This document shows, piece after piece, positions 2,884-32,975 of a DNA stretch of 64,000 bases (the first letter of the stretch is position 1; each line of letters opens with the position of its first letter). The translations under genes were made by a program, and so were the position numbers. The stretch spans positions 27,846 through 91,845 of the forward strand of contig JAYUJH010000016.1 of assembly GCA_043765375.1 (NCBI GenBank), read 5' to 3'. This stretch comes from Alphaproteobacteria bacterium. GTDB taxonomy: Bacteria; Pseudomonadota; Alphaproteobacteria; Rickettsiales; UBA998. Below the pieces are notes generated by a model that saw nothing but the letters and a program-made list of their open reading frames with translations, had not been told where the DNA came from and did not search any database.

Positions 2884-3480
2884 ATGAAAACAAAACCTAT
2901 TTTTATTATAATTAACGTTATTTGCGCCATAATTGCAATCTCAAATATCAATATTAACGCTGCAAATGCGGCTAGCAACATGAAACCGCAAGCAAAACCA
3001 GCCTATAAACATACGCAAGTTGTAGGTTATCTTGAAAAAGTTAGGGTTATGAATGTTGATACTATCTTTAACGCCAAGATGGATACAGGGGCGGATACTT
3101 CCTCTATGCACGCTAATATTGTGGATTTGAAACGCAATAGAGAAACTGAAGATGGCAAGGGTTATGTTATTTTTACGTTAGACACGGAAGGCAGCAAGAA
3201 AACCAATCATATTAAACGCCCGCTGGAGCGAATGGTTCGCATCAAAATGCGGGGGGAAGCTGGTGGGTATCAACGCCGCCCCGTGATAGGAATGGTGTTT
3301 TGTATCGCAGGTGTGCCAGTGCGTGAAGAAGTGAACTTAAGCAACCGTGAGAACTTCAAATATGATTTGCTGGTTGGGCGTAATATGATTGCCAAAGCAG
3401 GGTTATTGATTGATTCCAACAAAAAATATACCTCAAAACCAAATTGTATTGAGAAGAAAATTGAAGAAAAAAACAGTTAA
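2884..3480 (+). CDS. Secreted retropepsin-like aspartic protease family protein (COG4067/DUF785, the so-called ATP-dependent zinc protease family)
   Basis: An N-terminal signal peptide is present. The motif VGYLEKVRV...AKMDTGADTSSMHA...LLVGRNMI matches this family's aspartyl-protease-like core. Confidence 0.6.
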   Translation: MKTKPIFIIINVICAIIAISNININAANAASNMKPQAKPAYKHTQVVGYLEKVRVMNVDTIFNAKMDTGADTSSMHANIVDLKRNRETEDGKGYVIFTLDTEGSKKTNHIKRPLERMVRIKMRGEAGGYQRRPVIGMVFCIAGVPVREEVNLSNRENFKYDLLVGRNMIAKAGLLIDSNKKYTSKPNCIEKKIEEKNS

Positions 3481-5902: not shown

Positions 5903-6952
5903 TTATTGATTGGTTATTTCTATATATTCTGCCAGTAATATTTTCGCTTTGCCTGAATCAATTGCCTCTGTTGCGAGTTGCATTGCTTGGCTTAGAGTTT
6001 CGCAATGTTCAGCCACAATCAGCCCCGCTGCTGCGTTCAACAATACGATATCACGATATGCTGCGATATTACCAGTTTTTTTGCCACTAAACAAGGCTTG
6101 CATAGCAACCGCATTTTCGGCGGGTAGCCCGCCCTTAAGGCTATCCTCCGTGCAAAATGCAATGCCATAATCATTGGGGTTTAAGGTGAACTCGGTGATT
6201 TCGCCATTATGTAATTGCACAATTTGGCTGGTGGTGGTGGTGGTGATTTCGTCCATACCATCATTGCCATGCACCAACCATGCTTTATGCGCCCCTAATT
6301 TATGCAATGTTTCTGCCATAGGGCGTAACCATTTTGCATCATAAACGCCAATTAATTGGCGGGTGGTGCGGGCAGGATTGGCGAGAGGCCCCAGCAAGTT
6401 GAAGATGGTGCGAAGCCCTAGCTCCTTGCGCACATCAGCCACATGGCGCATTGCAGGGTGATATAAAGGTGCCATTAAGTGACAAAAGTTTAGTTGTTGC
6501 AATGCTTGTTGTTGCAATTGCTCTGATGCGTCTATGCGCACGCCTAAATGTTGCAATACGTCAGATGAACCTGATGCGGAGGTGATGCTGCGATTGCCAT
6601 GTTTAATCACTTTCACGCCACAGCTTGCGATTACTATAGCGGTTGCGGTGGAGATGTTGAAGGTTCTCTTGCCATCACCTCCTGTTCCGCAGGTATCAAG
6701 CGCATTCATAGCCTCAGCCTCGCCAATATTTCCACCAAACTTGATGGATTTATGGCGCATAACATTTGCCCCTGCGGCAAGCTCCGCCACGGTTTCTCCT
6801 TTGGCTCGCAATCCCATCAAAAATGCAGCAATTTGTGCGGGAGTCGCCCCGCCACTCATGATGATATGAAAAGCACGCTCTGCCAATTCATATTCCAAAT
6901 CACGCCCATATGCTAGTTCGGTAAGGATATCTTGAATCTGATTTGAACCCAT
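5903..6952 (-). CDS. trpD: Anthranilate phosphoribosyltransferase
   Basis: The motifs DTCGTGGDGKRTFNISTA and KHGNRSITSASGSSDVL are present, and the length (349 aa) fits. Confidence 0.9.
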   Translation of the reverse strand: MGSNQIQDILTELAYGRDLEYELAERAFHIIMSGGATPAQIAAFLMGLRAKGETVAELAAGANVMRHKSIKFGGNIGEAEAMNALDTCGTGGDGKRTFNISTATAIVIASCGVKVIKHGNRSITSASGSSDVLQHLGVRIDASEQLQQQALQQLNFCHLMAPLYHPAMRHVADVRKELGLRTIFNLLGPLANPARTTRQLIGVYDAKWLRPMAETLHKLGAHKAWLVHGNDGMDEITTTTTSQIVQLHNGEITEFTLNPNDYGIAFCTEDSLKGGLPAENAVAMQALFSGKKTGNIAAYRDIVLLNAAAGLIVAEHCETLSQAMQLATEAIDSGKAKILLAEYIEITNQ

Positions 6953-6971
6953 TTATATTTTTTTGTCCTAA

Positions 6972-7685
6972 TTATAGCTTTTTGCCAATCAACATGTGAC
7001 GTTTGCACCCATATCCTTTGATTTTTTCCACAACAACGCCATGTTGCTGCAATGATTGTCGCACTGAACTGGCTGCGGTGAATGTTGCAAATGTTCCCTG
7101 CGGTTTTAATGTGCGGGCAACATGTTTTAATATATCATCATTCCACATATCAGGGTTTTTGGCGGGAGCAAATCCGTCTAAGAACCAAGCATTAATGCTT
7201 GCATCATTAATTTGTTGCACCCCACAAATTGCCTCCATAAATATCAGGATTAATTGTATATTATGGCTCAAATGCAATGGATATACGCCATAAAGCGGTG
7301 ATGGATATTGCGACCGCCACTGCCGTGATTCTTCCGCAATACCCAATTTTTGATGTAATTCCAACAAATCAGCTGCGGAGATTGGGTGTTTTTCAATTGA
7401 GATATATGTAAGTTTGGCGGATTTATGCGCCAATTTCTGCCATAATTGCGTGGTGAGATGGAAGTTTAATCCTGTGCCAAAGCCAAGCTCGGCAATGGTG
7501 AAATCTGTTGTTTGTGCAAATCTTTCATGCAGTCCGTTGCCTCGCAATGAAACATAATCTATTTCCTCAAATGCGTGGTTTGGCATGTAATATACGTCAT
7601 CATAATCACAAGATATTGGTGTGTAATCTGATGATTGGGTGCTAAAGCTAAGGCGGGCGGGGCTGATTGCATACATGTGATGCAA
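6972..7685 (-). CDS. mnmC: Stand-alone tRNA mnm5s2U methyltransferase domain (MnmC C-terminal/DUF752-like)
   Basis: The motifs ELGFGTGLNF and DAWFLDGFAPAKNPDMW are diagnostic of the MnmC SAM-methyltransferase domain. No FAD-oxidoreductase half is present. Confidence 0.75.
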   Translation of the reverse strand: MHHMYAISPARLSFSTQSSDYTPISCDYDDVYYMPNHAFEEIDYVSLRGNGLHERFAQTTDFTIAELGFGTGLNFHLTTQLWQKLAHKSAKLTYISIEKHPISAADLLELHQKLGIAEESRQWRSQYPSPLYGVYPLHLSHNIQLILIFMEAICGVQQINDASINAWFLDGFAPAKNPDMWNDDILKHVARTLKPQGTFATFTAASSVRQSLQQHGVVVEKIKGYGCKRHMLIGKKL

Positions 7686-7716
7686 CCGATATATAATTTA
7701 CGCGGTTATGTCAAGT

Positions 7717-8094
7717 TTATGCGCTAATATCAAGCAAATTACCAAGCATTTCATTTGCTGCTTTTAGCACCTTCAAGCTACCTTGGAAGTTATAAGTTGC
7801 CAATTTTTGCTGGATTAGCTCATCTTCCGCACTAACATTTGGTGCTTGCAATGATAAATCTGGATTGCCGCCGTCAACTGATGTAACCGTGGCAGGGCTG
7901 CGCTCAACAATGCTCGCTTTTACGCCACCACCGCTGCTGCCACCATTACCAACATTCAAATTGATTGATGATTGCGTCACATCTGTTGGGATATAACCAG
8001 TCGTTGTTGCGTTCGCCACATTATTTGCACTATTATTCAAGCGCAAACTTGCTGCATTTAACCCTGATATTGCAATATTTATTGATGTATCCAT
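7717..8094 (-). CDS. Flagellar basal-body rod protein-like small protein (FlgB/FlgC-type N- and C-terminal motifs)
   Basis: The N-terminus ISGLNAASLRLNNSANNVANATTTGY matches the rod-protein signature (ANNxAN..T.GY). The C-terminus LIQQKLATYNFQGSLKVLKAANEMLGNLLDI resembles the Flg_bbr_C helix. No other flagellar genes lie in the window. Confidence 0.5.
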   Translation of the reverse strand: MDTSINIAISGLNAASLRLNNSANNVANATTTGYIPTDVTQSSINLNVGNGGSSGGGVKASIVERSPATVTSVDGGNPDLSLQAPNVSAEDELIQQKLATYNFQGSLKVLKAANEMLGNLLDISA

Positions 8095-9160: not shown

Positions 9161-9214
9161 ATTTTTTTGAGGGGCTAGGTGATAGGGGTTAGGGTTTAGG
9201 GTGCAGCGTATAGT

Positions 9215-9264
9215 GAGTTCGTCATACCATACCCCGAAGGGAAGCGTAGCAAAATACTGGTATC
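9215..9264. repeat. Intergenic palindromic repeat element (dispersed family copy)
   Basis: The sequence gagttcgtcataccataccccgaagggaagcgtagcaaaatactggtatc shares the GAGTTCGTCATA head with copies at about 13265 and 34298, and the ccgaaggga core with 4329-4402. Confidence 0.5.
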
Positions 9265-9403
9265 AATTATTCATGCCTAATAAATGAAACATATTAGTTT
9301 CCATTCTAAAAAGTTAAGTTCTAACATCACCATGTTTAACAAATATTAACCATTATAATGCTAAAATATACATAATTATTTTAATTAATATATGGTTTAA
9401 GCA

Positions 9404-11299
9404 ATGGCTAAATATAATCAATCCAACTTTATGCCACTAAAATATTCTCACGGTTTTTCACTGATTGAGTTGTCAATAGTGTTGGTTATTATTGCTATCA
9501 TCGCAGGAATGAGTATGTCCATTGGGTTAACTCAAATGAAAATCGCTAAGGTGAGCAACACTGAAAACACTATTGATAATGTCAAAATCGCCCTTGCTAC
9601 TTATAAAGCCAAAGCAGGACGCTTACCTTGCCCTGCCAACCCCACACTTGGCACAACTGCACCGAATTATGGCTTGGAGGCTGCACCTTGTGATGTGGCT
9701 TGCCCCGCTGGTTTGACTTGCCCAGATGCAGTGCAGGCGCAAGGAGCAATTCCATTCAAAACTATTAATCTTTCAGAATCTGCGGCTTATGATTCATGGA
9801 ATAACAAGTTGAGCTATATTGTGGATAGATCATTAACTATGAGTGCGAACGCAAGTGATGATGGTCACATTCCGATTATGGATAGCAACGCTAACGAAAT
9901 AACCAACTCGCCAGTATTTGGTAAAGTAACTTATGTAGTGCTAAGCCATGGTGCAGACGGCAAAGGAGCTTATACAAATGGGGGAGTTTTGCGTGCCGCT
10001 TGTGGAGTTACGGAGGGAGATAGTGAAAATTGCAATGGTGACGCGGTTATAACATCTCGCGCCGTCAACGCATCTAGCAATGTTGCCAATAGCGCCAATT
10101 TTTATGATGATTATGTTGAGTGGGAGGTGCAGAAACATATCGTCCGATTCCCTACATTTGAAGAAATGTCAGTTAGCCAATCAGTTTGGGTGGGAGAACA
10201 AAATACATGCGTAATAAAAGAAGATGGACAAATCGCTTGCACTGGTTCAAATGGTTTTGGAGAACATGGAATTGGTAATTATAGTTCATCAAATGTTTTT
10301 AGAAACATTTCAGGCGGTGATAATTTTCATTCAATTGGTCATGGTGATAACAATGCCGTTTGTGCGATTAGGGATGATAATTTAGCACTATGCTGGGGAC
10401 AGAATTATCGGAATAGCATAAGCATATTAGGAATTAATAGCAACGTTTCTTATCAATTGACTCCCACTTTGATATATGGCGGGTATACTAATTGGACTTA
10501 TGCCATGGTTGATACCGATGGTGGATGTGGAATTATCAGCGGGGTAGCTTATTGTTGGGGAGACAATGCAAATGGACAAATTGGTGATGGAACTAGTTCT
10601 GCTAGTCCATTTCCAGTTTTAGTTTCGGGTGGATTTAATGATTGGAAAAAAATATCAACTGGTGGTGGTAGTCCGAGCACTTTTTCATGTGGGATACGCG
10701 CTAATGGTAAAATATATTGCTGGGGAGGGGGATCTTTAGGGCATATAGGCAATGGCACTCTGAGCGATTATAATACTCCGCAGGAAGTTTTGCAAGATAA
10801 CGGTTTATCTCCTGGTTTTTCAGATTGGAAGTTTTTGCGGGGCAATGGTTCAGCAAATTGCGCAATAAGAGCAGGGGGTCTGCTTTATTGCTGGGGTAAA
10901 AATAATGAAGGGCAAATTGGTGATGGCACTACAACAAACCGCTCACTCCCTGTTCGTATTGGGTTGCCATATAATGATTGGCGCGCAGTATGGTCTGGAG
11001 CAGCTAGCACTTGTGCTATTCGTGGGCAAGGATTACTTTATTGCTGGGGTAAAAACGATAAAGCTCAAGCAACGGGAGTGGTGAGTGGTAACATATTAAC
11101 GCCAACGCCAGTTGCCACAACCATTAGGGATTGGAGATATGTTTCCACAAGGGGCTATGCTCATACATGCGGACTTCGTTCAAATGGCAATTTATATTGT
11201 TGGGGCAGTAACGAATATGGGGCATTTGGCAATGGAACAACTAGTAGCACGCCTGCATCACCAACTTTGATAACTGGTATAAAAGGAAAAATATTATGA
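9404..11299 (+). CDS. Prepilin-type N-terminal cleavage/methylation domain + GspG-like pilin domain fused to a 7-repeat RCC1 beta-propeller (paralog A)
   Basis: The class III signal is G17|FSLIE22 followed by the hydrophobic helix LSIVLVIIAIIAG. A pilin-like DSWNNKLSY motif is present (compare DPWGNPY of GspG). Seven repeats of the C.(I/L)R..G.LYCWG.N..GQ(I/L)GDG type fill the C-terminal half. Confidence 0.8.
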   Translation: MAKYNQSNFMPLKYSHGFSLIELSIVLVIIAIIAGMSMSIGLTQMKIAKVSNTENTIDNVKIALATYKAKAGRLPCPANPTLGTTAPNYGLEAAPCDVACPAGLTCPDAVQAQGAIPFKTINLSESAAYDSWNNKLSYIVDRSLTMSANASDDGHIPIMDSNANEITNSPVFGKVTYVVLSHGADGKGAYTNGGVLRAACGVTEGDSENCNGDAVITSRAVNASSNVANSANFYDDYVEWEVQKHIVRFPTFEEMSVSQSVWVGEQNTCVIKEDGQIACTGSNGFGEHGIGNYSSSNVFRNISGGDNFHSIGHGDNNAVCAIRDDNLALCWGQNYRNSISILGINSNVSYQLTPTLIYGGYTNWTYAMVDTDGGCGIISGVAYCWGDNANGQIGDGTSSASPFPVLVSGGFNDWKKISTGGGSPSTFSCGIRANGKIYCWGGGSLGHIGNGTLSDYNTPQEVLQDNGLSPGFSDWKFLRGNGSANCAIRAGGLLYCWGKNNEGQIGDGTTTNRSLPVRIGLPYNDWRAVWSGAASTCAIRGQGLLYCWGKNDKAQATGVVSGNILTPTPVATTIRDWRYVSTRGYAHTCGLRSNGNLYCWGSNEYGAFGNGTTSSTPASPTLITGIKGKIL

Positions 11300-13233
11300 C
11301 AACTCAATTCTTAGTTAAATATTCATCATCTCAAGCAAAACAATATGGTTTCTCCCTTGTTGAACTATCCATCATCATTGCGGTGTTTGCTGTTGTGATT
11401 ACGTCATTGCTTTCTGGCAGTGGCATCAAAACTGAAAATAGTGATGTTATATCAGTCAAAGCGGAGCTTGATAATGTTGAGTCGGCACTAGCATTTTTTC
11501 AAAAAAGCAATGGTTTTCTGCCCTGCCCTGCTAGCCGCACCGCCGCCCCGAGCAATGCAGCTTATGGGGTGAGTGTGGATTGCACCAACACCGCTGCCAA
11601 CCCCGCAGATGGGACGATTAATATAGGGGCAAGCGGTGATATTTATCAGGTTCGGGTGGGGACAATTCCAACTCGCACCCTCGGGCTTGCTGATTCCGCC
11701 GCATTAGACCCGTGGGGTAATCGTTTGAGTTATATGATTATTCGTTCATTAGGAGTGAGTTCTACGTCATACTCCAGCTTCAACCCAACGCAAAACACAG
11801 ACTTTTTTCAAATTGTTAACAAGACTAGAGCGGTAATTTATGGCAGCAACACTTCAGAAATCGTTAAATATGCAGTGTTAAGCCATGGTGCAGATGGGCA
11901 AGGCGCATTCAACAAAAATGGTATTCAGGGGCTTGCTTGCGGTGGCTCTGCTGCTGATGCAGAAAATTGTAACGCAACCAAGCAAATCATGGTTGATGGC
12001 GTGAGTGATGTGGTGCAAACAAATAATTCAACATATTATAATGATTATGTTCGCTATGGTGGCGCTACTGCACCATTCCCCCCCCCCCCTATAGCATCAA
12101 CTGGAGCGATATTTATTGCGACGCACTCACGTGGCACTTGCATCATCACGGGCGATGGCAAATTATTATGCACGGGCTATAATGATAATGCGCTAACTGG
12201 TAGGGGGCATCATAACAACACCATACTCACCACCATTTTTGAGGAAATTATCGGTGGGGGTAAATGGCGAACCGTTAATTTGGGATATAACACCACCGCA
12301 TGTGGCATTAAAGATGATAATAGAATATATTGCTGGGGTGATAATGTTTATGGCGCACTGGGAAACCTGCCTGTTGGCTTGAATCAATTCAAGGATAATC
12401 CAACAGAAATTGATGGAGGATATAATGATTGGACGGCGTTAAGTGCGGAAGATGCGATGAGTTGCGGCATTCGTGATGGTGGCAAACTTTTTTGCTGGGG
12501 AACTGGATATTATGGCAATGTTGCCTCAACTGGGCAGGAATTAAGCGCAATTCCTAAACGAGCTGCCGACGCATATAATAATTTTGTCGCAGTTAGTGTT
12601 TCTGATTGGTCCCCTTTATATGTTAGTATTTGTGGAATTACAACTGATGGAAAACTCTATTGTTGGGGTGATAACTCCCTCGGCACACTCGGTGATGACA
12701 CATGGGTTGCTAAACTAGAACCAGTTGAAGTGATGACTTCCCATTATGGTGGCATAGCAGATTGGCAAAATGTTGATATTGGACATGGTAATGTTTGCGC
12801 AGTCAGAGCAAGTGGGCAGCTTTATTGTTGGGGCAATGCGGATAGAGGCGGAATTGGCTATGGCTGGGCTTCCCCCGCCTATCCTAATTTGAAAAAACCA
12901 TTAGCATTGCAAGGTGGGAAACCAACGCCGTTCATTGCATTAGCGCACGGCAATTCATGTGGTGCAAGCGGTGGCATTGCCTATTGCGCAGGTAAAGATG
13001 ATTATGGGCAATCAACAGGAGAAGCAACTTGGGACGCAACGGGATATAAACCAGTGGTGCTTGGCGGGGCTATTAACAACTTTAGATATGTTAGCCCGAG
13101 TGGTGGCAATCACACATGCGGATTGACAACCAATGGCAAATTATATTGCTGGGGGATTAATGATCTAGGACAATTCGGCGATGGTGCAACTTCGCCTTTA
13201 GTTGCACCACCAACATTAATTGCACTGCCTTAA
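11296..13233 (+). CDS. Prepilin-type N-terminal domain + GspG-like pilin domain fused to a 7-repeat RCC1 beta-propeller (paralog B)
   Basis: The class III signal is G18|FSLVE23 plus a hydrophobic helix. The motif DPWGNRLSY is present, along with seven RCC1-type repeats (for example TDGKLYCWGDNSLGTLGDD). The start overlaps the stop of paralog A by 4 nt (ATGA). Confidence 0.8.
   Translation: MTTQFLVKYSSSQAKQYGFSLVELSIIIAVFAVVITSLLSGSGIKTENSDVISVKAELDNVESALAFFQKSNGFLPCPASRTAAPSNAAYGVSVDCTNTAANPADGTINIGASGDIYQVRVGTIPTRTLGLADSAALDPWGNRLSYMIIRSLGVSSTSYSSFNPTQNTDFFQIVNKTRAVIYGSNTSEIVKYAVLSHGADGQGAFNKNGIQGLACGGSAADAENCNATKQIMVDGVSDVVQTNNSTYYNDYVRYGGATAPFPPPPIASTGAIFIATHSRGTCIITGDGKLLCTGYNDNALTGRGHHNNTILTTIFEEIIGGGKWRTVNLGYNTTACGIKDDNRIYCWGDNVYGALGNLPVGLNQFKDNPTEIDGGYNDWTALSAEDAMSCGIRDGGKLFCWGTGYYGNVASTGQELSAIPKRAADAYNNFVAVSVSDWSPLYVSICGITTDGKLYCWGDNSLGTLGDDTWVAKLEPVEVMTSHYGGIADWQNVDIGHGNVCAVRASGQLYCWGNADRGGIGYGWASPAYPNLKKPLALQGGKPTPFIALAHGNSCGASGGIAYCAGKDDYGQSTGEATWDATGYKPVVLGGAINNFRYVSPSGGNHTCGLTTNGKLYCWGINDLGQFGDGATSPLVAPPTLIALP
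12078..12089 (+). repeat. C12 homopolymer tract inside paralog B, encoding FPPPP at the pilin/propeller hinge
   Basis: Read directly: cca ttc ccc ccc ccc cct. It is the longest homopolymer I noticed in the window. Confidence 0.85.
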
Positions 13234-24031: not shown

Positions 24032-24940
24032 TTACCCACGCAAAAAATCCGCCATATCCTCCGCTAATTGCCGACCCATATGGCGCAATCCACTCAATTG
24101 ATGCGTTTGCAACCAACTCGCATCATGTGCTGCAATCATGCCCCGCAAGTTAATTATGCCCTTATCCAAAGTTGCATATGCGGCAATCGGAGTGCGACAA
24201 CTACCATCAAGCAAGCGCAACAAATGACGCTCCACCGAAACACATGAATGAGTTATATCGTGATTTATCTGCTCCAATAATTCAATCATCGCAAAATCTG
24301 TGCTGCGACATTGCATACCAATCGCCCCTTGCGACACGGCGGGCAATATTTCCGTAATCTCAATTGGGTGCGCATTAGGGTGAGTGATGCTCAACCTATC
24401 CAACCCCGCTTGCGCTAGCAATGTTGCATCAACTATACCCTCCTCCAGCTTGGCGAGGCGACGCTGCACATTGCCACGATAATTCACCACATTAATATCA
24501 GGGCGCAAATGCTTGACTTGCACTGCTCGGCGCAATGAAGACGTGCCAAGAATTGCGTTTTGAGGCAAAGTTGCAATGGTTGAGGCGTGAGGCGAAAGCA
24601 ATGTATCCCGCACATCATCGCGGGGCAGCATTGCGGGAATAATCAAGCCATCAGGCAGAATTGTTGCCACATCTTTCATGGAATGCACAGCAATATCAAT
24701 TGCACCACCAAGCAATGCTTGCTCAATTTCTTTGGTGAATAGCCCTTTATTGCCAATCTCGGAGAGGTTACCCAACAGATACGCATCGCCCGATGTTTGA
24801 AATGTTTTGATTATGATTTGTAAATGAGTGCTATGCGCAATTAATTCATCACGAACCATTTCCGCCTGACGCACTGCCAACGCACTAGAACGAGAACCGA
24901 TTATTATGTGGTGGTTTTCAAGCATCAGACAAATCTTCAA
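24032..24940 (-). CDS. hemC: Hydroxymethylbilane synthase (porphobilinogen deaminase)
   Basis: The motifs IIIGSRSSALAVRQAE, GDGLFTKEIE-like (NKGLFTKEIEQAL), HSMKD, GTSSLRR and GSCRTPIAA are present. The true start may be the internal Met at about 24925. Confidence 0.9.
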   Translation of the reverse strand: MKICLMLENHHIIIGSRSSALAVRQAEMVRDELIAHSTHLQIIIKTFQTSGDAYLLGNLSEIGNKGLFTKEIEQALLGGAIDIAVHSMKDVATILPDGLIIPAMLPRDDVRDTLLSPHASTIATLPQNAILGTSSLRRAVQVKHLRPDINVVNYRGNVQRRLAKLEEGIVDATLLAQAGLDRLSITHPNAHPIEITEILPAVSQGAIGMQCRSTDFAMIELLEQINHDITHSCVSVERHLLRLLDGSCRTPIAAYATLDKGIINLRGMIAAHDASWLQTHQLSGLRHMGRQLAEDMADFLRG

Positions 24941-25391
24941 ATCTCACTATTTTATTGTTATTTTTGCTATGCAATATTCCTAACTTATTTTTTTTAATTA
25001 TTTTGTTAGCTTGCGCATATCCAGCTTTTGGGTGTTTTGTGACAACAACTAAAACTCGTGTTTTATTATTATACTCAGTTTTATCTTTCAAATACTGATA
25101 AGTTGTTACAAGCTGATTTGCCGCCTTAACAAAATCAGTTCCTTTTAGCTCAATAATAATTTGCCCAACTCCAACTTTTTGCAATAAGTAGTCAGCCGAT
25201 TGTTGATTATTACCATATTTGTTTTTTATCACATAATTATCTATTCGTATTTTTTTATAATCACTTTCATCAGTATTACTAAAAGTAATTTTAGTGCTTT
25301 TGTTGTCTGTTACAACAATCAATGTATGATTTTTATTAGTATCTGGATTTTTGCAATAATCAACGTATTCATTTGGAAACTGGTAATTCAT
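24918..25391 (-). CDS. Small (157 aa) protein with a PD-(D/E)xK-type motif, partner of the upstream ATPase
   Basis: The segment D67-x13-E81-L-K83 (SADYLLQKVGVGQIIIELKG) has beta-hairpin-like spacing and is followed by a helix (FVKAANQLVTTYQYL). The gene is very AT-rich. It starts 5 nt after the ATPase stop, and its 3' end overlaps the annotated hemC start. Confidence 0.5.
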   Translation of the reverse strand: MNYQFPNEYVDYCKNPDTNKNHTLIVVTDNKSTKITFSNTDESDYKKIRIDNYVIKNKYGNNQQSADYLLQKVGVGQIIIELKGTDFVKAANQLVTTYQYLKDKTEYNNKTRVLVVVTKHPKAGYAQANKIIKKNKLGILHSKNNNKIVRFEDLSDA

Positions 25392-25396
25392 TAATG

Positions 25397-26644
25397 TTAC
25401 TCTAATTCTATTTCTGCAAGTTTTTGGATTTCTTCAATAATTATGTCTGATGCGCTATCCAAATATTCTTCCTCAATAATCCCATCACTATCAATTAAGT
25501 TATGGCTTTTGCCATCTTTCATTTCATAAACATTGATATTTTTGCGGGGCAACCAATATTCACGGGGGATTATTTTGGCAATTTTATCCAATTTTTCTGC
25601 ATCATCTTTGAATTGTTCAGAAAGTCTTCCTGCTTCAAGAAGTGAGTTTAATTGTGAGAGAATATAAGGGCTATGGGTGGTGATGAACGTATGTTGTATA
25701 TTTTTACTAATAGCAGTTTTTGAGCGCATTAGTTTAGTCACAGTTTCCTTATTTGATAATTCAACAATAAACTTAGCAATAATTCCTTGCGTTTCAGGAA
25801 ACAAATGTGCTTCTGGCTCTTCTATTACAACAAAATCATGTCTATAATTATATAAATAATCAAATGATGCAAGCAATGGATATAATTCCTTTTGTCCCGA
25901 CGAAGAATTAGTTAGAGAAACTTTACGCCCGTCATCACTAACGATGAAAATATTACGGTTATCTCTGACTATTTTTCCTTTCAAGGTATTATTTGCATCT
26001 TTTGTTATAAAGTAATCAAATTTTTCACCATTTATTTTTCGGATTTTTCCATCTGCTAACATCGCATAAAGACTCCCAAATTTATTGAGTATTACGTCTG
26101 GATTTTCTGACATCAATATATCAGCACTTTTAGAGCGATCTATAAAATAGCTTCTACCATCTGGAATGAATAGATTACGATATGGAATGTTTTGCCTTCT
26201 AAACAATCTACTTGCGCTCATTCTCAATCTAGAACTAATGATAAAATCATCTTCGTTAGATTTTTGCTTGTTAAATGCCTCATCAATTTTAGCATATAAT
26301 ACAATTAATTTATTAGACAGGGTAATTTGTAATTCTTTTTTTATCCCCAATATTTTTATAGAGTAACCATTAGTTTCAAACTTAATCTCAAATCTTTTAT
26401 CAGTAAAAGAATCTTTTTCAAACAAAATATAAAAATTATTCTTAATATACTGTTTTACTTGCTGAACAGAATTAACTTCATCGCTTTCAATTTCAATCTT
26501 TAGAAAACTTTCACTAAAAAAATAAATCAACTTACCCAACAAACTTTTCCCGCTGGAGTTAGCACCAATCAACACGGTCAAGTTGCTGATTTCCATATTA
26601 ATATTAGTTAAGCAACCGAAGTTTTTAACAATTATATGAGCCAT
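25397..26644 (-). CDS. Soluble ABC-type ATPase of the AAA_15/AAA_21 (OLD/AriA/PtuA-like) class
   Basis: It has Walker A GANSSGKS (K33), the signature-like motif SSGQKE, Walker B/D-loop FVVIEEPEAHLFP and the H-loop ITTHSPY. A long insert separates Walker A from the signature. There are no TM segments and no transporter partner. Confidence 0.8.
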   Translation of the reverse strand: MAHIIVKNFGCLTNINMEISNLTVLIGANSSGKSLLGKLIYFFSESFLKIEIESDEVNSVQQVKQYIKNNFYILFEKDSFTDKRFEIKFETNGYSIKILGIKKELQITLSNKLIVLYAKIDEAFNKQKSNEDDFIISSRLRMSASRLFRRQNIPYRNLFIPDGRSYFIDRSKSADILMSENPDVILNKFGSLYAMLADGKIRKINGEKFDYFITKDANNTLKGKIVRDNRNIFIVSDDGRKVSLTNSSSGQKELYPLLASFDYLYNYRHDFVVIEEPEAHLFPETQGIIAKFIVELSNKETVTKLMRSKTAISKNIQHTFITTHSPYILSQLNSLLEAGRLSEQFKDDAEKLDKIAKIIPREYWLPRKNINVYEMKDGKSHNLIDSDGIIEEEYLDSASDIIIEEIQKLAEIELE

Positions 26645-30797: not shown

Positions 30798-31919
30798 ATG
30801 ACAGCGTTATATATTCATTGGCCATTTTGCAAAAAGAAATGTCCCTATTGTGATTTCAATTCTCATGTGCGCTCAAATGTTGAATATGATGATTGGCAAA
30901 AAGCATTATTTAATGAAATGCAATATATGGCAGAAATTAGCAATGTTAAAAATGTTAGTAGCATTTTTTTTGGGGGAGGAACTCCGTCACTAATGCCAGT
31001 GTCGTTAGTTAGTGCGTTAATTAATGAAGCAGAGCGAATATTTGGATTTGATGGCGATATTGAAATCACGCTGGAAGCTAACCCAACTTCATTTGAGGCG
31101 GATAAGTTCAAGCAGTTCAAAGCGGCGGGAGTGAACCGATTATCGCTTGGAGTTCAGGCTTTGAACGATGCGGATTTAGCATTTTTAGGGCGGGAACATT
31201 CGGCGAAAGAGGCGATAAATGTGTTGGATATGGCGCAAAAAATCTTCACCCGCTTTTCGTTTGATTTGATTTATGCTCGCCCCAACCAAACACCAACAAA
31301 GTGGCGAGGTGAATTGACGGAAGCCCTGCAATTTTTGCCCACTCACCTTTCATTATATCAACTAACGATTGAGGAGGATACGCCATTTGCTCGCCTACAT
31401 GCTGCCCGCAAGTTTGCTTTGCCCGATGAAGATTGCGCAATTGAACTTTATGAAATCACCGAAGAATTATGCAATATCAATAGCTTGCATTCTTATGAAG
31501 TTTCAAATTATGCGGCAACAAATCAACAAAGTTCGCATAATTTAACCTATTGGCGGGGCGGTGATTATATTGGAATTGGAGCGGGAGCGCATGGTAGGAT
31601 TTTGGATCATGACGGGCAGTGGTTTGCAACCCAGACTTACAAAAGACCTGAGAGATGGCTGGAGCGTGCGAGCAAAAATCGTCATGCGATTGAAATTATG
31701 CAGCCTTTGAGTGCGATTGAACGGGCGGAGGAAATATTGCTAACGGGGTTGCGCCTGCGTGAGGGTATTGAAATTGCCAAGATTGCGCCCGCCCTGAATG
31801 TGGCAAAAATGCAACTTCTTGCCGAAATGAATCTGATAAATATAACGCATACGCACATCATTATCAGCAAAAATGGGCAATTGTTGATAGAAAATATTGC
31901 ACGGGAGCTGATATTATAA
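30798..31919 (+). CDS. hemW: Radical SAM heme chaperone HemW (HemN-like)
   Basis: The N-terminus YIHWPFCKKKCPYCDF carries the CxxxCxxC motif. GGGTPS is present and the length is 373 aa. Confidence 0.85.
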   Translation: MTALYIHWPFCKKKCPYCDFNSHVRSNVEYDDWQKALFNEMQYMAEISNVKNVSSIFFGGGTPSLMPVSLVSALINEAERIFGFDGDIEITLEANPTSFEADKFKQFKAAGVNRLSLGVQALNDADLAFLGREHSAKEAINVLDMAQKIFTRFSFDLIYARPNQTPTKWRGELTEALQFLPTHLSLYQLTIEEDTPFARLHAARKFALPDEDCAIELYEITEELCNINSLHSYEVSNYAATNQQSSHNLTYWRGGDYIGIGAGAHGRILDHDGQWFATQTYKRPERWLERASKNRHAIEIMQPLSAIERAEEILLTGLRLREGIEIAKIAPALNVAKMQLLAEMNLINITHTHIIISKNGQLLIENIARELIL

Positions 31920-31925
31920 TAATAT

Positions 31926-32975
31926 GTGGTTGAAAATATTGTCATAAGGTTAAATATAATGAGTGAACTAATCAGTAAATCATCTAATTCGTTAATGAGC
32001 AATTCCTCAATAAGCATAACTTCAATATATAATATGTCAATTATACCAGCTATTATGGTTGGGTTAAGCGTCGTCGGATTGGGCGTTTTCGGATTGGGCG
32101 TATTTGCTTTTGGTGGGAATGCGAATGCGCAATATCTGCAAGTGCCATCATCGCAAGTTACACAACAAAATGTTGCACCACAAAATGTTGGAACGCAACC
32201 CGCAACAATGAACACACCCGCAATCATTAATACGCCCGTGATTAATAATGTTCAAGATACGGTAAAAAACTTAGCTGCACCGAACTCAGCAGCACAAAAT
32301 GGATTTGCACCGAGTGGATTAAAGCTAAATGAGATTGCACCTGCAAATAACATGTCAATGCCCGTAACAAATCCCGTAGCTAGACCGTTGATAAATCCAA
32401 TGAATAACACGATATCAAATCAATTATCGCCTCTGGAACTAGCTCCAGCAATAGTTGCACCAGCAAATATTTCTCCAGAGCAGGCGCAGCAACAGACGCA
32501 AGATTTTTTGCCTGAAACTTTTGTGAATCCAAGCCAGATTCCAGCAAATAATGAGCCAACAAATAATCAGCCAAATGTTTCTGCGCCAGTGACTTCATCA
32601 CCAATGACATCAACGCCAACATATGTTAAAAATGGCGGAGAAATAATAGATTTGCAACCAGTTGCCACCGCATCATTCCCTTATCTGAGTGGTGGAATTG
32701 GTGCAGATGAAGTTGCTAACATGCAATCGCAAAAAATGAATTATAATTTTCACATTATGAGTGCGGACAAAACAGGACATTTTACTGGTGAAATTGCGCT
32801 AACCATCAAAAATGGAAGCGGAGCAACCTTATTTGCGAGTGATGCGGGGCCGTTATTTTATGCGACTCTGCCGAATGGAAATTACACGGTGATGGGTGAA
32901 CGTGAGGGCGTGGTCAAATCACAAAAAATTAGTGTGAGGCAAGGCAACCCAGCGCATATTCATTTTGGTTGGTAA
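31926..32975 (+). CDS. Membrane/secreted protein with a P/N/Q-rich linker and a C-terminal carboxypeptidase-regulatory-like beta domain
   Basis: A hydrophobic segment with a GLGVFGLGVF repeat is present. The C-terminal GGIGADE...ALTIKNGSGATLF...ATLPNGNYTVMGEREG segment resembles CarboxypepD_reg-like proteins. The true start is probably an internal Met. Confidence 0.45.
   Translation: MVENIVIRLNIMSELISKSSNSLMSNSSISITSIYNMSIIPAIMVGLSVVGLGVFGLGVFAFGGNANAQYLQVPSSQVTQQNVAPQNVGTQPATMNTPAIINTPVINNVQDTVKNLAAPNSAAQNGFAPSGLKLNEIAPANNMSMPVTNPVARPLINPMNNTISNQLSPLELAPAIVAPANISPEQAQQQTQDFLPETFVNPSQIPANNEPTNNQPNVSAPVTSSPMTSTPTYVKNGGEIIDLQPVATASFPYLSGGIGADEVANMQSQKMNYNFHIMSADKTGHFTGEIALTIKNGSGATLFASDAGPLFYATLPNGNYTVMGEREGVVKSQKISVRQGNPAHIHFGW

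Follow-up and report, generated by a model that had tools for sequence, protein, structure and literature searches.

The stretch of DNA analysed here (further referred to as the window) comprises 64,000 nucleotides from an alphaproteobacterial genome assembly assigned to the Rickettsiales (GenBank GCA_043765375.1, contig JAYUJH010000016.1, positions 27,846 to 91,845 of the forward strand). Two of its genes, located on the same strand and joined by a 4-nt stop/start overlap (ATGA), encode the proteins P1 and P2. Each protein is composed of a prepilin-type N-terminal module and a complete seven-bladed β-propeller of the RCC1 type, connected by a linker (Table 1). A preliminary description of the window had proposed this fusion, and both the domain search and the structural model demonstrate that it is a true one. 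The coordinates, the lengths and the overlap of the two reading frames given in that description were exact, and the proteins are indeed tandem paralogs, with 33% identity in the alignment. At the DNA level gene 1 and gene 2 are approximately 50% identical throughout, without traces of recent gene conversion.

Table 1. Features of the gene pair and of the upstream spacer, in coordinates of the window. AF2, AlphaFold 2; ORF, open reading frame; pLDDT, predicted local distance difference test.
Feature	Residues (aa)	Coordinates	Strand	Basis
Gene 1, modular pilin-like protein P1	631 in total	9404..11299	+	ORF, Pfam, AF2 model
P1 leader, ends with Gly17	1–17	9404..9454	+	Sequence, family-wide conservation
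P1 pilin module	18–242	9455..10129	+	AF2, PDB profile search, Foldseek, alignments
P1 linker	~243–262	10130..10189	+	Low pLDDT
P1 seven-bladed RCC1-like propeller	~263–631	10190..11296	+	Pfam, AF2, Foldseek, Cys motifs
Gene 2, paralogous modular pilin-like protein P2	645 in total	11296..13233	+	ORF; start overlaps the stop of gene 1
P2 leader, ends with Gly18	1–18	11296..11349	+	Sequence
P2 pilin module, Cys77/96/215/225	19–254	11350..12057	+	Alignments, sequence
P2 proline-rich linker, ATAPFPPPPIASTGA		12058..12111	+	Sequence
P2 seven-bladed RCC1-like propeller, seven Cys pairs		12112..13230	+	Pfam, seven motifs
Spacer between nadA and gene 1, 243 bp, AT-rich		9161..9403		GC composition

Both proteins start with a class III signal, as had been noticed earlier. 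The N-terminus of P1 reads MAKYNQSNFMPLKYSHG/FSLIELSIVLVIIAIIAG (...KYSHG/FSLIELSIVLVIIAIIAG) and that of P2 reads MTTQFLVKYSSSQAKQYG/FSLVELSIIIAVFAVVI (...AKQYG/FSLVELSIIIAVFAVVI), the slash marking the end of the leader; the signals are thus G17/FSLIE and G18/FSLVE, each with Glu at position +5. In P1 the prepilin peptidase is predicted to cut between G17 and F18. If the internal Met10 is taken as the start, the leader becomes 8 aa long. P1 scores above the cut-offs of both Pfam N_methyl (27.6 bits, cut-off 21.2) and NCBIfam TIGR02532 (26.6 bits, cut-off 16.3).

The AF2 model of P1 was built on 23 family sequences and has the mean pLDDT of 79.4; when the pilin module was modelled alone, the pLDDT equaled 77.9. 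In the model, a helix α1 of 52 residues (residues 20–71) is followed by a small β head of four to six strands. The conserved cysteines of the P1 module are Cys76, 96, 200 and 210, and the residues of the head invariant in the alignment are P75-C76-P77, C96, D130, W132, Y138, S181, G188, C200, N209-C210 and D236. Comparison of the module profile with PDB yielded matches along the whole of α1 to Geopilin, TcpA, GspG, PilE and other solved pilins (E from 2e-9 to 1e-4), and these matches cover α1 only. The best PDB match found by Foldseek is CofA, the type IVb pilin of enterotoxigenic Escherichia coli (probability 0.99), followed by gonococcal pilin, PilA1 and GspG, all of them weak. No Pfam model spans the globular part, and no plasmid homologue of the module was found. 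The N-terminal part of these proteins appears to be a genuine pilin-type module, more than a membrane anchor.

The preliminary description had called the head cysteine-rich and had seen in it a GspG-like D.W.N..Y motif. The former is an overstatement, given just six cysteines in the head of P1 and four in that of P2. As for the latter, the profile-profile alignment (hhalign) with GspG, the major pseudopilin of the type II secretion system (T2SS), covers positions 4–70, that is, α1 only; since it stops at position 70, the head motif is not evidence of homology. The GspG model TIGR01710 scored 28.1 bits for P1 and 15.0 bits for P2 against a cut-off of 88.85, matching only profile positions 1–61, and Pfam T2SSG (PF08334) had no match at E≤1 in either protein. 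P1 and P2 thus lack the full-length match, globular head included, that a GspG would show.

The linker of P1 has pLDDT below 50 at residues 245–252 and low values on either side, and in the model it is probably flexible; the corresponding region of P2 is gap-rich and unconserved in the alignment. The C-terminal ~370 residues of both proteins match the Pfam families RCC1, RCC1_2 and WD40_RLD above the cut-offs (WD40_RLD: 151.6 bits for P1 and 208.8 bits for P2, cut-off 150; RCC1_2: E=1e-32, with the P2 match split into six stretches). The C-x(8-10)-C[W/T/A]G motif occurs exactly seven times in each protein, and the AF2 model of the P1 propeller has 28 strands forming seven blades (pLDDT ~90), so that the earlier assignment of a seven-bladed RCC1 propeller stands. 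The closest structures in PDB according to Foldseek are UVR8, the RLDs of HERC2, and RCC1, with E down to 6.5e-28; for UVR8 the template modelling (TM) score is 0.89 at a root-mean-square deviation of 2.5 Å. The Pfam family of PilC/PilY1 β-propellers had no match at E≤1 in P1 or P2. The nearest relatives of the propeller are extracellular proteins with Sec or lipoprotein signals from Myxococcota, Bdellovibrionota, Chloroflexota and Saccharibacteria, often carrying Big_2 or EGF domains.

In total P1 contains 20 cysteines and P2 contains 18, all of them in pairs: each blade has one C-x(8-10)-C pair, and two to three more belong to the pilin head. One of the latter, at the C-terminal end of the head, is a C-x9-C loop resembling the D-region of pilins. 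The pairs probably form disulfides, and, together with the export signal, they point to an oxidising, extracytoplasmic location of the propeller.

A word-index search with P1 yielded about 22 full-length relatives of 580–650 aa with 31–54% identity, named in the Joint Genome Institute (JGI) data only as 'prepilin-type N-terminal cleavage/methylation domain-containing protein'. Only two homologues had taxon names, one from a Rickettsiales metagenome-assembled genome (MAG) and one from an Alphaproteobacteria MAG. We then searched exhaustively 1.84 billion representatives of clusters at 50% identity using HMMER with the module profile. The module family comprises 3,573 clusters at E≤1e-30 and 8,590 clusters at E≤1e-10, while the 75,920 clusters at E≤1e-3 reflect generic α1 similarity. 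Motifs and architectures were counted in the best 150 representatives. At least four RCC1-type motifs are present in 43 of them, 45 are standalone modules, and 62 carry other C-terminal modules; Pfam analysis of 61 of the latter revealed NHL and PQQ propellers, LamG lectin, phage tail collar, collagen-IV C4, Lcl_C and CopC domains. The family is thus modular, with the same carrier joined to diverse partners. A scan of genome contigs produced relatives at the level of the propeller only, and a metagenome scan produced six short contigs uninformative on the context. The same family includes two giants, P0399 (4,430 aa, 61 RCC1-type CWG motifs) and P0415 (2,141 aa, 27 motifs), which, from their sequences, would be prepilin-signal proteins bearing many tandem propellers.

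The class III motif is present in 140 of the best 150 representatives. Among these 140 proteins, position −1 is occupied by G in 126 and by A in 14, position +1 by F in 111 and by Y in 25, and position +5 by E in 135. A plain membrane anchor would need neither G−1 nor E+5, and this conservation indicates selection on the residues of processing and assembly. Conservation of G−1, F/Y+1 and E+5 therefore favours processing by prepilin peptidase and filament assembly over mere membrane anchoring.

Fused genes were considered at five other loci. Locus L001 contains three in tandem and is syntenic with the window (mnmC, a small flagellar-rod-like gene, nadA); L002 contains two copies; L003, one standalone and three fused genes; L005 and L038, one standalone and one fused gene each. 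In L003, L005 and L038 the standalone genes adjoin the fused ones and encode the ~225-aa module as proteins of 257–262 aa. A further standalone family pilin, P0137 (286 aa), is encoded far from machinery at L042:10001-13032 and is followed by a 716-aa protein, which starts with GFALIV, without E5, shares the YPCPAS motif and matches LamG faintly.

More distant standalone members, P0172 and P0194, align with 27–30% identity over 94% of the module (E of 1e-27 and 4e-21, respectively). Their genes are the second-to-last or the last pilin genes of machinery operons. Besides a tetratricopeptide repeat (TPR) protein and proteins of unknown kind, these operons encode an MshL-like secretin (236 bits), a GspF-like platform protein and an ATPase that combines an MshEN with a T2SSE domain (GspE, 457 bits). 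Their pilins are a GspK-like one lacking E5 and having the shared LPCP...LPW motif, the family pilin, and one of the GFTLIE type. The location of these members inside secretin/ATPase/platform operons means that, on the evidence of gene order, the module family is associated with a GspE/MshE-type machine for type 4 filaments. The type 4 filament operons at L040:1498-11317 and L041:208-10735 comprise pilin genes, genes for an MshEN-T2SSE ATPase, an MshL-like secretin, a GspF-like platform and a TPR protein, and four genes whose products have no family. The E5-less GspK-like pilin of these operons is 375–531 aa long, and its 134 relatives from Azonexus, Dechloromonas and MAGs are annotated only as 'hypothetical'.

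The explanation we prefer, with a probability of roughly 0.6, is that P1 and P2 are modular type IV pilin-like subunits, the propeller serving as a filament-borne ligand-binding head. The hydrophobic N-terminal segment of α1 (α1N) would insert the proteins into the inner membrane, where the prepilin peptidase would cut the leader of 17–18 residues after Gly and N-methylate Phe1. The ~225-aa pilin module with Glu5 would then dock into the filament, polymerising through α1. An ATPase of the GspE/MshE type would build the filament together with a secretin and a GspF-type platform, all encoded at other sites of the genome; type IV pilus and T2SS genes are widespread in basal Rickettsiales according to phylogenomics (PMC10847448). 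The propeller, with a mass of ~40 kDa, would be held by a flexible linker of ~20 residues at the C-terminal end of the pilin module, and given this bulk P1 and P2 would most likely occupy the filament tip, or else be sparse along the shaft or surface. Stabilised by disulfides, the propeller may act as an adhesin or a lectin-like ligand-binding head. The two proteins would share the carrier design, and the divergence of the paralogs suggests that they probably differ in binding specificity. A filament-tip adhesin, offered already in the preliminary description, is the most reasonable reading, and it fits the modular-pilin precedents PilB, PilC and PilX2. If the propellers are indeed tip adhesins, they are candidates for recognition of surfaces, hosts or prey by these bacteria.

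Several observations weigh against this reading. No pil, gsp or tad genes were identified among the ~55 ORFs of the window using Pfam and NCBIfam, and no prepilin peptidase, ATPase, platform protein or secretin is encoded in the window and the 10 kb downstream of it. The lack of pilus machinery nearby, pointed out in the preliminary description, therefore extends over ~74 kb. The fused genes of the five loci listed above have no machinery within 10 kb on either side. The profile of the GspK-like protein produced 134 matches, none of them on a fusion-bearing contig, this being an insensitive test. P2 scores just under the cut-off of N_methyl (20.9 bits against 21.2) and under that of TIGR02532 (11.5 bits against 16.3). 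The structural likeness of the pilin head to known pilins is weak (best E 0.022, TM score 0.35–0.41), the head was modelled at medium confidence only, and one family member, P0060, lacks E+5.

Separation from the machinery in all seven fused-family loci examined favours a pseudopilin-type anchor, in which the inner membrane, or a short pseudopilus in the periplasm, would hold a propeller never displayed on a surface filament; the function of the propeller would then be periplasmic, e.g. binding of envelope glycans or partner proteins. Moreover, the GspE/GspF/secretin system of the operon-linked relatives could be a pilus or a T2SS-like pseudopilus, and the α1 profile matches GspG too. However, the conserved E+5 and G−1 matter for processing and polymerisation, not for anchoring; the partner modules found in the family (lectin, tail collar, Lcl_C, propellers) are typically outward-facing binders; and the precedents PilB, PilC, PilX2 and CofB are displayed on the surface. 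We regard such an anchor as rather unlikely. The export signal and the paired cysteines, indicating an extracytoplasmic fate, would also agree with a released exoprotein. In that case the class III signal would route the propeller protein to a T2SS-like or type 4 filament machine, which would expel it, once cleaved, into the medium. The giants of the family are hard to fit in a filament and speak for the same possibility. On the other hand, the hydrophobic α1N stays on the protein after cleavage, so that the free protein would be insoluble unless buried in a filament or membrane; the linker has no apparent second cleavage site, and the literature searched contains no precedent. Release of this kind appears improbable.

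The preliminary description had also drawn an analogy with LegG1 and the Ran pathway, which would make P1 and P2 eukaryote-like RCC1 effectors of the LegG1/PpgA type, delivered into the host cell and acting on the Ran GTPase. RCC1 repeats are present, one family member is annotated as originating from a Rickettsiales MAG, and RCC1 effectors of Legionella are known from the literature. Nevertheless, the N-terminal class III signal and the membrane helix are incompatible with a soluble translocated effector, and the fourteen paired cysteines of the propeller, one pair per blade, point to an oxidising compartment and not to the host cytosol. The relatives of the propeller are extracellular proteins of free-living bacteria from the four phyla mentioned above, and the same carrier bears NHL, LamG or tail-collar modules in place of the propeller. 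The analogy is thus unsupported, and an effector role has next to no likelihood. More generally, RCC1 repeats in bacteria should not be read as eukaryote-targeting effectors by default.

Some relatives of P1 and P2 are mosaic or recently duplicated. In L001:6166-11917 (JGI 3300044941, Ga0484952_000034) the tandem fused paralogs P0036, P0004 and P0001 are mosaics at the DNA level. P0004 and P0001 are 100% identical over ~660 nt of the pilin module and then ~50% identical in the propeller, and P0036 and P0004 are ~48% identical in the pilin module and 97–98% identical over much of the second half of the propeller. Such a pattern points to gene conversion or exchange of modules, unless the assembly is at fault. 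A homogenised pilin module with differing propellers is what one expects if the carrier must fit one filament. On the 1.9-Mb JGI contig of L002 (Ga0484951_000001), the fused genes at 5925-7793 and 10001-11863, separated by nrdR, pssA and psd, have 100% identical DNA except for the first ~60 nt, which indicates a very recent duplication. A bolder and decidedly doubtful possibility is that, in small-genome uncultivated Alphaproteobacteria, subunits combining pilin and propeller replace the tip complex of PilY1 and minor pilins, with the paralogs serving as exchangeable cassettes. Gene conversion would keep the carrier uniform while the propellers are swapped or diversified, as the 100% and 50% identity blocks of L001 suggest. 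If true, the propellers would do what antigenic variation does in pilins, varying the specificity for hosts, prey or surfaces.

The spacer upstream of gene 1 is AT-rich, as described earlier, with a GC content of 0.317 that falls to 0.213 over the last 150 bp. The 'repeat element' reported there is, however, only a 12-nt imperfect direct repeat, GTT(G/A)GGGTTTAG, which has no copy elsewhere in the window and was dismissed as trivial. The spacer is presumably the site of the promoter and the ribosome-binding site of the two-gene unit, and no convincing match to a σ70 promoter was found inside it.

The ~55 ORFs of the window are housekeeping genes, including recG, trpD, mnmC, nadA, a GT4 glycosyltransferase gene, a DNA methyltransferase gene, edd/glk, clpP, tig, dprA, acnA, ccmEF, mlaAC and efp; no tRNA and no Rfam family was found in the window. 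A 125-aa ORF at 7717-8094 (− strand), lying alone between mnmC and nadA, has N- and C-terminal motifs of flagellar rod/hook proteins (FlgK, FlgC and FlgB families, all below the cut-off). This arrangement is kept in L001, and the window contains no other flagellar gene. Beside recG, a retropepsin-like aspartic peptidase of the RloA/RimB type is encoded at 2884-3480 (+ strand; best match RloA3, 102 bits, cut-off 210). At 24918-26644 (− strand), just upstream of hemC, genes for an AAA_15/AAA_21 (AbiEii/OLD-like) ATPase of 415 aa and a family-less 157-aa protein may constitute a small defence or toxin-antitoxin-like insert among the housekeeping genes. In the segment 28691-34233 (+ strand), tig and clpP are followed by a radical-SAM protein gene (30798-31919) in place of clpX, then by a 349-aa ORF without a Pfam family (31926-32975) and dprA.

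The preliminary description considered the architecture of P1 and P2 unusual and uncharacterised, and here it did not hold. More than 1,200 modular pilins with 264 architectures have been catalogued (Raynaud et al. 2021, PMC8179133), and several RCC1 architectures (IPR012902-IPR000408/PF13540), with a count of one each, appear in Dataset S1 of that study. Besides, PilX2 provides a precedent, and, as shown above, the RCC1 fusion is frequent among the best representatives of the module family. P1 and P2 have the features by which modular pilins are defined, namely the N_methyl motif, a linker modelled with low confidence and a non-pilus domain (RCC1), and the module also exists in a standalone form. 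The principle of the fusion is therefore already known, and the proteins are not new in kind. A pilus specialist would be unsurprised by it; the size and diversity of an unannotated propeller-bearing family, together with the hints of module exchange, may be useful. The large unannotated family (at least 3,573 clusters at 50% identity) gains a name and a testable role, that of carriers displaying propellers and lectins. The modular-pilin principle, so far shown experimentally only in monoderms, is extended to uncultivated diderm lineages.

The closest known counterparts are the modular pilins of Raynaud et al., which share with P1 and P2 the class III signal, a small pilin module, a short linker and a bulky generic binding domain. 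Of these, Streptococcus sanguinis PilB (vWA) and PilC (LamG lectin) were demonstrated experimentally to be adhesins (PMC8179133, PMC9934059), and LamG-bearing members occur in the module family of P1 and P2 too. The differences are that the module studied here is ~225 aa long instead of ~100–130 aa, has four conserved cysteines and belongs to a separate unnamed family, and that P1 and P2, so far sequence-level predictions, are tandem paralogs from a diderm host, encoded far from the machinery.

PilX2, a minor pilin of the T4P-2 type IV pilus of Nanosynbacter lyticus TM7x, consists, like P1 and P2, of an N-terminal hydrophobic helix and a heptabladed RCC1 propeller. It has been proposed to be a filament adhesin; without it, host binding drops by half and competition is impaired (bioRxiv 10.1101/2024.11.25.624915). 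Saccharibacterial RCC1 proteins of 828 aa match the propeller from the window at 28–30% identity. Both PilX2 and these 828-aa proteins lack a canonical prepilin signal, whereas the signal of P1 and P2 is a textbook one. The N-terminal modules also differ, the host of PilX2 is a monoderm, and its gene is located in a pilin locus.

In type IVa pili, PilY1/PilC (IPR008707) has a β-propeller at the pilus tip for adhesion or sensing and is a plausible functional analogue. PilY1, however, is not a pilin; four minor pilins form the complex that holds it, and its propeller is of another family, whereas in P1 and P2 the carrier and the propeller form one polypeptide. Finally, CofB/TcpB and GspK, the tip-located initiators of assembly, combine, like P1 and P2, a pilin domain with extra C-terminal or inserted domains, and the best, though weak, structural match of the pilin module is the type IVb pilin CofA. 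Their extra domains are system-specific folds and their genes lie inside the machinery operon, whereas P1 and P2 carry a generic propeller and are orphans; moreover, GspK lacks E5, which P1 and P2 retain.

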